Below are positions 23,841-24,536 of a DNA stretch of 26,763 bases, piece after piece. A program made the translations under genes and the position numbers. The DNA is from a virus (lineage: Duplodnaviria > Caudoviricetes): positions 1 through 26,763 of IMG/VR virus record IMGVR_UViG_3300037484_000415. One strand, given 5' to 3'. Numbering within the stretch: the first letter of the stretch is position 1; every line of letters starts with the position of its first letter. The notes beneath the pieces are model-generated. The model saw nothing but the letters and a program-made list of their open reading frames with translations, was not told the origin of the DNA and did no database searches.

Positions 23841-23926
23841 GCCGATGACAAATACCGTCAATATCGGCAAGATGCGGCACTTACTTGAGCGATATTTGTC
23901 ACTTGCTGATACACAGGTGTGACAAA
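23841..23926. promoter_or_regulatory. Candidate upstream activator (PilR-like enhancer) sites
   Basis: TGAC-N7-GTCA inside GCCGAT..ATCGGC (23841-23868) and TTTGTCAC-N16-GTGACAAA (23895-23926), upstream of a sigma54 promoter. Confidence 0.5.
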
Positions 23927-23952
23927 AAGCACGAAATAGAGACCGAGCTGCC

Positions 23953-23969
23953 TTGGCACGCATGCTGCA
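23953..23969 (+). promoter_or_regulatory. Sigma54 (-24/-12) promoter of the pilin gene
   Basis: TTGGCACG-CATG-CTGCA: GG at 23955-56 and GC at 23967-68, separated by exactly 10 nt. Confidence 0.8.
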
Positions 23970-24021
23970 GATACAGACTCGTGCCGGGGAGGTCTCCGGT
24001 CCAACCAACTTAGGAGTTTCC

Positions 24022-24495
24022 ATGAACCGTCGTTCCATTGCTCGCAACGTCCAAAAGGGCTTCACCCTCATCGAGTTGATGATCGTGGTGGCCATCATCG
24101 GCATTTTGGCAGCGGTTGCGCTGCCGGCTTATCAGGACTACACCGTCCGCGCCCGGGTCACGGAAGGCATCGGCTTCGCTGCAGCTGCAAAGGGCACGGT
24201 GACCGAGAACATCGCCAACGCAGGTGGCGTGATCGGCACCACGGGCGTGGACTATTGCGCCGGAGTGGCCGTTTTCACAACTGCGAGCACGACCACCGGC
24301 CACATCTCGACGATGAACTGCACGGCAGCCAGCGGCGTGATCCTGGTGACGATGGACGCTACTGCCAAGTCCGTTCCGCTGACCCTCACGCCTACCGTTG
24401 ACTCGGCCAGCGGCGGCACTACGTGGAAGTGCACGACGACCACCGCAAGCGTCAAGTACGTGCCTTCCGAATGCCGCGCGAACGCAACGACCTGA
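24022..24495 (+). CDS. pilA: Type IVa major pilin (157-aa prepilin)
   Basis: AGGAG RBS; leader [49 protein letters not shown] (G-1, F+1, E+5); C-terminal WKC...YVPSEC disulfide loop plus a second Cys pair. Confidence 0.96.
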
Positions 24496-24511
24496 CCTTT
24501 CGCAATCTGAC

Positions 24512-24536
24512 AAAGGCCGCCTCTGGGCGGCTTTTT
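24512..24536. terminator. Bidirectional terminator between pilin and cI
   Basis: AAAGGCCGCC-TCTG-GGCGGCTTTTT. Confidence 0.85.

Follow-up and report, generated by a model that had tools for sequence, protein, structure and literature searches.

The closest described relatives of the locus reported here are filament subunits carried by prophages and viruses. F10-like Pseudomonas prophages encode P-FimU, and tests have shown that replacement of the host subunit by this protein blocks phages (PMC12952977). As described in that paper, P-FimU is a prophage pilus subunit with diverse alleles and its own, predicted -35/-10 promoter, for which receptor replacement is proposed; it is a minor tip pilin, encoded in the tail gene cluster. 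Without testing it, the same paper lists a phage-borne PilA (P-PilA) for five prophages of Xylella and for virulent phages of four groups (Fig S6, Table S3); this protein is about 50% identical to that of the host and has a predicted canonical fold. The text appears silent on promoter type, immunity position, partners and head exchange, and Fig S6 and Table S3 may bear on position. Prophage replacement of the major pilin has been suggested earlier, and experiments so far concern the minor pilus part FimU. Two further systems are known from other filaments. SNJ2, a provirus of Natrinema, encodes the major pilins PilA1/2, which host machinery assembles; this system is archaeal, forms filaments of its own and provides the receptor for a second virus (PMC12426801). 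FRphi carries fliC_P, a prophage version of a major filament subunit, with TldR, an RNA-guided repressor (PMC13418256; 10.1101/2023.11.30.569447).

The window analyzed here is an entire viral contig of 26,763 bases, with host flank absent. Its gene content includes tail, lysis (endolysin), integrase, methylase, YqaJ/RecT, cI, cro and cII genes; the phage is temperate and lambdoid, and its host is likely Variovorax. The pilA leader matches Variovorax pilA. The operator palindrome ATCGG-N4-CCGAT occurs in seven copies at no more than one mismatch, against 1.15 expected, and four of these make up OL (23105-23118, 23128-23141) and OR (25236-25249, 25259-25272). The operator copies and domain matches confirm the placement of pilA in the initial annotation, between OL and cI with phage genes on both sides. 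The slot from OL to cI holds three genes: an XRE regulator, a four-cysteine exported protein and pilA (Table 1); the initial annotation noted only the last of them. No other prepilin motif appeared in a six-frame scan of the window, which agrees with the earlier statement that it holds no second pil gene. The locus differs from P-FimU (PMC12952977) in several respects: its pilin is the major one, lies next to cI in the immunity region, is preceded by a sigma-54 promoter and PilR-like sites, has two partner genes and shares its heads with the host pool; it is known from sequence.

Table 1. Features of the immunity region and the recombination genes of the window.
Feature	Position	Strand	Basis
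YqaJ exonuclease and RecT annealase, candidate head-exchange route	18561..20097	-	family matches
PL, TTGACA-16-GATAAT, overlapped by two OL operators	23102..23141	-	sequence and operator palindromes
XRE-family HTH regulator, 110 aa, divergent from PL	23221..23553	+	family match
Unannotated exported four-cysteine protein, 111 aa from TTG start	23535..23870	-	signal-peptide-like N-terminus
PilR-like enhancer, TGACAAA half-sites at -108/-59/-34 from the sigma-54 box	23846..23927	+	matches Variovorax pilA element
Sigma-54 (-24/-12) promoter, TGGCAC-N5-CTGCA	23954..23969	+	sequence match
Ribosome-binding site TTAGGAG	24010..24016	+	sequence
Type IVa major pilin (P-PilA), Variovorax-type leader, four cysteines	24022..24495	+	Pfam, fold, leader
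Intrinsic terminator between pilA and the cI stop	24512..24536		folding z -2.9
cI repressor, HTH and peptidase S24	24536..25210	-	domain matches
OR operators	25236..25272		operator palindromes
cro-like gene	25284..25502	+	family match

In lambda, rexAB lies between OL and cI and is co-transcribed with cI on the same strand. The comparison with the rex slot drawn in the initial annotation holds for position and fails for wiring. Here pilA is convergent with cI, separated from it by the terminator, has its own sigma-54 promoter and gives no Rex family match. Being on the opposite strand, pilA is unreadable from the cI promoter, unlike rexAB; the only gene of the slot on the cI strand is that of the four-cysteine protein.

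Several other features of the window were recorded. A 206-aa glycine-rich ORF (22167-22787) with a signal-peptide-like start lies near the front of the PL arm and has no family match. A 736-aa ORF (9509-11719) directly after the lysis genes has a signal-peptide-like start as well, and Pfam, PHROG and NCBIfam gave no match for it. Between the XRE and four-cysteine genes there is a 26-nt imperfect inverted repeat (73%; 23242-23267 and 23778-23803), probably a chance occurrence. The phage tail protein has only distant phage matches at about 30% identity and gives no clue to pilus use. An IS605-type TnpB element (14064-15261), with a 45-aa gene upstream, sits between the integrase region and the methylase, and a similar TnpB was found in just one fetched locus (L052). 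We considered this TnpB (14198-15244) as a TldR acting on pilA and rejected it: the D...E...D residues are present by eye, with an alternate E, and across 60 host pilA regions the seed matches of its candidate guides did not exceed those of the random control. Its RuvC-II motif reads AVGNV, and the alternate glutamate likely lies later.

The pilA ORF is intact and encodes 157 aa. The short, basic leader of 13 residues ends at a cleavage site between G and FTLIEL, and the mature chain carries E5 and P22 in the hydrophobic N-helix and cysteines at positions 66, 87, 124 and 138. Pfam matches are to Pilin (E 8e-15) and N_methyl (E 8e-11). The predicted model (pLDDT 92) has the type IVa features of a long helix, an antiparallel sheet and a C-terminal cysteine pair, and in fold it most closely matches pilins of Neisseria, Burkholderia and Pseudomonas. 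Every element that the initial annotation had listed for this gene, namely an intact frame, cleavage site, cysteines, ribosome-binding site, own promoter and terminator, is present in the sequence. Among 50,697 GenBank phages, tblastn with the pilin as query found nothing at 1e-5, although the low-complexity filter may mask the helix. Metagenome relatives of the pilin head came from 14 loci, and phage context was found in none of the 12 examined; the closest (L170, 71%) appears chromosomal.

Sigma-54 promoters follow a -24/-12 consensus. The match upstream of pilA is the sole TGGCAC-type box in the window, and the same box precedes all 60 chromosomal pilA loci analyzed. At these loci a TGACAAA-type dyad (in 53 of 60) and further half-sites lie upstream of the box, and the window resembles them, at the level of a sequence match, in having a sigma-54 promoter with upstream activator sites. 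Its three half-sites fall within 150 nt, whereas none of 178 window bins reaches three; the dyad score alone (6.0) is weaker and near the top of the background. We infer that PilR binds these half-sites. PilSR autoregulates pilA with sigma-54 (PMC6058289, PMC11960060), and PilS senses pilin (PMC6058289). All three lysogen genomes have a clear PilR-like best match, which in the one genome inspected lies next to a kinase gene, and the phage pilA promoter likely depends on the PilR of the host. At the other end of the gene, the hairpin was not among the calls of an automated terminator scan of the window; the same GCCGCC hairpin type follows the pilin at 14 of 15 loci in the immunity slot and pilA at 28 of 60 chromosomal loci.

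In order to compare the locus with others, we assembled several sets. A DNA pattern for the leader retrieved 56 genome loci, mostly from Variovorax. Gene neighborhoods and tblastn searches with 13 window proteins place 55 of them in chromosomes and one (L111) in a prophage, where cI follows the pilin gene; the chromosomal pilA of the same genome is L119. A protein scan of viral contigs gave 64 pilin loci, with surroundings examined in 24, and showed that pilins of other phage types also lie among head, tail and lysis genes. With a pattern of promoter plus pilin, 29 viral sigma-54/pilin loci were retrieved. The initial annotation had proposed a search for pilA between cI and PL in other phages, and the arrangement does recur: a convergent repressor-like gene lies behind the pilin in 11 of these 29 loci (Pfam S24 in 8, HTH only in 3), while 2 end too early and 16 have the pilin elsewhere or are unassignable. 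Prophages with the same layout are also found in three bacterial genomes (L111, L150, which equals L127, and L152). The last two came from a genus sample of 148 genomes, from which 20 stretches were taken for strong or double matches; the sample also gave three phage-like pilin copies that lie elsewhere (L155, L161 and L164), as judged from neighbors without a scan. The repressors of the recurrent loci are unrelated to or distant from the window cI.

The resulting phage set has 25 members, 15 in the immunity slot and 10 elsewhere; L143 was placed in the slot without a visible repressor, and the repressor of L152 was seen from translation only. Of the 29 viral loci, duplicates (L127, L133), a truncated locus (L139) and other phage types (L129, L132, L136, L138, L142, L145, L147, L149) were left out. 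The host set of 60 consists of 50 of the 56 leader-pattern loci, after removal of L111 and five duplicates, and 10 loci from the genus sample. Pilins without a sigma-54 box in apparent head, tail or replication clusters of other phages appear to represent a separate way of carriage; full-length examples are L009 1453-1980, L010 2129-2632, L031 2223-2666, L027 6013-6531, L028 606-1034 and L007 6001-6459. A pilin with the same leader and terminator type (L004 1-495) lies at the edge of an apparent filamentous prophage with a Zot-like gene.

Relatives of the XRE regulator lie upstream of the pilin in 16 of 25 phage loci and 0 of 60 chromosomal ones. Their recognition segment RT-x-x-RWE is found in 14 of the 16 cassettes, while the cI repressors of the same cassettes differ widely; in the window XRE, H replaces R. 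When viral contigs were scanned with the XRE, a pilin was present in 4 of 40 loci among the matches listed, three being query members. XRE and pilin occur together outside the immunity region in L125, L144, L148 and L161, so the pair appears to move as a unit; in L125, L144 and L148 the XRE carries a NinX domain. There is no RNA-guided repressor here like that of FRphi (PMC13418256; 10.1101/2023.11.30.569447), and the XRE is no more than a candidate for such a role. No Rfam match and no XRE operator were found.

The four-cysteine protein has four invariant cysteines and is confidently predicted as an all-helical bundle. It has no Pfam, PHROG or Foldseek match and no convincing Atlas match; an identical 111-aa product is present in the protein collection. 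Its gene is a neighbor of the pilin at 14 of 25 phage loci, among them 13 of the 15 in the immunity slot, and at none of the 60 main pilA loci. Its relatives form 115 clusters at 50% identity and include secreted and lipoprotein forms. Single-protein scans recovered known cassettes only, and in a family-wide sample of 401 genomes two had a hit, one of them a source of the query and the other weak. Within the genus the family is present in 15 of 148 genomes, with 10 hits adjoining a major pilin and 5 not; the ten include three query members, one with a cut pilin only, and several that are a second chromosomal pilin locus. Because chromosomal pilin loci are among these hits, the protein appears to be an accessory of pilin loci and not of phages only.

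This second chromosomal locus of Variovorax-group genomes (L228, L230, L231, L233) comprises two-component genes, pilA, a four-cysteine lipoprotein, a Sel1 gene and a pilE-like gene, and it is a possible source of the phage partner genes. A 3.3-kb stretch of L232 (105-3285) contains three closely related pilin genes arranged around an XRE gene and one for a four-cysteine protein. A further repeated neighbor of major pilins, in prophages and other phages as well as at second chromosomal pilin loci, is a Sel1-repeat gene that often has an additional N-terminal part and is absent from the window (L226 1169-1501, L227 1172-1513, L230 959-1468, L020 1452-1958, L005 1-558, L163 4109-4624). We considered the Sel1-repeat neighbor of sister phages as a Zip protein and found no support for this: family matches point to Sel1-repeat proteins, with no JBD26-like record.

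All 25 phage pilins are intact and retain F1, E5 and P22. Values of dN/dS obtained with a counting script are 0.19 for the window and L111, 0.05 for L121/L140, 0.06 for L148/L161 and 0.16 for L131/L150, and dN of the N-helix is 0 for the first three of these pairs. By these ratios the phage pilin is under purifying selection.

In trees, the promoter region separates phage from host and the head does not. We built trees for 25 phage and 60 chromosomal loci from the region between the sigma-54 box and the ATG and from the head; both alignments are short and leave many forks unresolved. The promoter/UTR tree needs 3 changes between phage and host labels against 21.9 on average after shuffling (0 of 500 as low), and the head tree needs 20 against a shuffled mean of 21.9 (100 of 500 as low). 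A full-model tree of mature pilins agrees with the head tree. The nearest neighbor is a phage for 23 of 25 phage promoters and a host for 12 of 25 phage heads. Since a single leader motif supplied most of the host set, the promoter tree is biased towards separation, but the following case is independent of this bias. L124 and L128 share 85% identity along 2183 nt leading up to the N-helix and 92% along 1638 nt from the terminator onwards, and blastn finds no alignment between these two points; their closest head relatives are the chromosomal L102 (78%) and L113 (87%), respectively. L122 and L140 show the same pattern more weakly. The pilin of L128 (6074-6575) contains no cysteines. The window head groups with L111 (53%) and the chromosomal L100 (58%). 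Taken at the level of these alignments, the comparisons show a promoter frame inherited among phages that encloses heads drawn from the host pilin pool.

The initial annotation expected a conserved N-helix and a divergent head relative to host pilA, and relatives of this phage bear this out. In all six genomes with both copies, the first 30 residues of the prophage and host pilins are 83-100% identical, while the heads are 23-44% identical. Here, a temperate phage carries a pilus subunit divergent from the host copy, the host comparison being made on those relatives. The median head identity between hosts is 30%, and the prophage's own host ranked 48, 14, 59, 2, 7 and 4 of 60. The mismatch is real and its size is that of ordinary host-host distance, which is why it does not demonstrate selection for mismatch. 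Even the closest phage-host pairs are almost saturated at synonymous sites, so the exchanges look old, and the comparisons show no recent swap. The N-helix and the terminator are homologous in phage and host and could serve as recombination arms. YqaJ and RecT are proteins of recombination, and they may be the route of head exchange.

We consider it somewhat more probable than the opposite (about 55%) that a host-regulated pilin with an exchangeable head co-assembles with the host pilin and changes the pilus surface, with phage exclusion as the likely benefit. Transcription would occur whenever the host makes pili, independently of CI and under PilS-PilR. The product would be processed and co-assembled via its conserved N-helix, and shared PilS feedback would lower host pilA output, so that host pilin would be diluted or replaced. 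Recombination, with RecT/YqaJ as possible agents, would exchange heads in the stretch from the N-helix to the terminator, the XRE would act as regulator and the four-cysteine protein as pilin accessory. The foreign head would reduce binding by pilus-dependent phages, and exclusion would be the selected benefit. Surface changes of pilin are reported to affect some tailed phages, and the same source describes several phages that tolerate divergent pilins, with DMS3 infecting all but one group (10.64898/2026.03.17.712343); because of such tolerance a new head need not protect. Mixed fibers still contain host subunits, which also counts against protection. A more elaborate version is rather doubtful: the XRE, the four-cysteine accessory and the PilS-PilR-wired pilin would form one module, its head refilled from the chromosomal pool, and the XRE would silence host pilA in a TldR-like manner, amounting to phage-run antigenic variation.

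The pilin might instead be built into pili for a benefit other than exclusion, either host fitness or a receptor for a partner virus, which we regard as unlikely but quite conceivable. Adhesion, twitching, biofilm, DNA uptake and predator escape are the traits this reading names, and the sequence evidence fits it equally. Flagellin remodeling is described as improving motility and colonization (PMC13418256), and SNJ2 pilins are described as promoting biofilm and acting as the SNJ1 receptor (PMC12426801). However, a location next to cI and heads that have been exchanged repeatedly would fit an arms race on a recognized surface better than a fixed mechanical gain. It seems improbable that the module damps or blocks piliation, with extra pilin damping PilS-PilR, or with the XRE and the exported protein repressing host pilA or stalling assembly, giving Zip-like resistance. 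The invariant N-helix, the sensing of pilin by PilS (PMC6058289), the recognition segment shared by most XRE proteins while the repressors differ, and the known anti-pilus proteins of phages (10.1101/2024.03.05.583538) all speak for damping, but a decoy helix would need neither full folded heads under purifying selection nor their exchange. The changed residue in the window XRE and the absence of a JBD26-like record among the matches of the Sel1-repeat neighbor also speak against it.

Phages could also be a mobile reservoir of heads that recombine into chromosomal pilA and drive host variation more than they act in place. The intermixing of phage and host heads and the shared homology on both sides of the head are consistent with this, yet a complete promoter, enhancer and ribosome-binding site are retained and matching heads were found in none of six lysogens, which makes a mere reservoir very unlikely. 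The least credible explanation is neutral capture of host pilA, or misassembly. Reads give this contig no support: among contigs of two sequencing runs none bridges the cassette, and X1 contigs match 22955-23066 and 24956-25220 almost exactly. Against this, independent viral contigs and bacterial genomes share the layout, the genes are intact and their dN/dS lies far below 1; in addition, the pilin has a GC3 of 0.78, which is within the range of phage genes and exceeds the 90th percentile of host pilA (0.73; median 0.66). The initial annotation had named a single occurrence nearly identical to host pilA as the sign of neutral capture; what we find is intact, under purifying selection, recurrent in this slot of unrelated lambdoid phages and, where both are known, different from the pilin of the host itself. 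Neutral capture and misassembly are therefore largely refuted.

The suggestion that this would be a little-described system stands for its wiring, partners and head exchange, but not for the general idea, since replacement of FimU by a prophage has been shown and P-PilA has been listed (PMC12952977), and since the pilins of a haloarchaeal provirus form filaments (PMC12426801). What is new here is a promoter belonging to a host circuit, two partner genes and evidence for head exchange; searches of the literature on phage-encoded pilins, short of most subscription journals and of preprint supplements, listed no paper on sigma-54 wiring, the two partners or an exchange of heads. Among phage receptors, type IV pili rank with the most common, and their most variable subunit is PilA. 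Sequenced lysogens hold both pilin copies, and close phages provide natural head swaps. If the proposed reading is true, lysogeny would alter the pilus type and phage host range of the bacterium, a new pilin-linked family of four-cysteine proteins would gain a function, and phages would join in pilin diversity that is usually credited to host-phage conflict alone.
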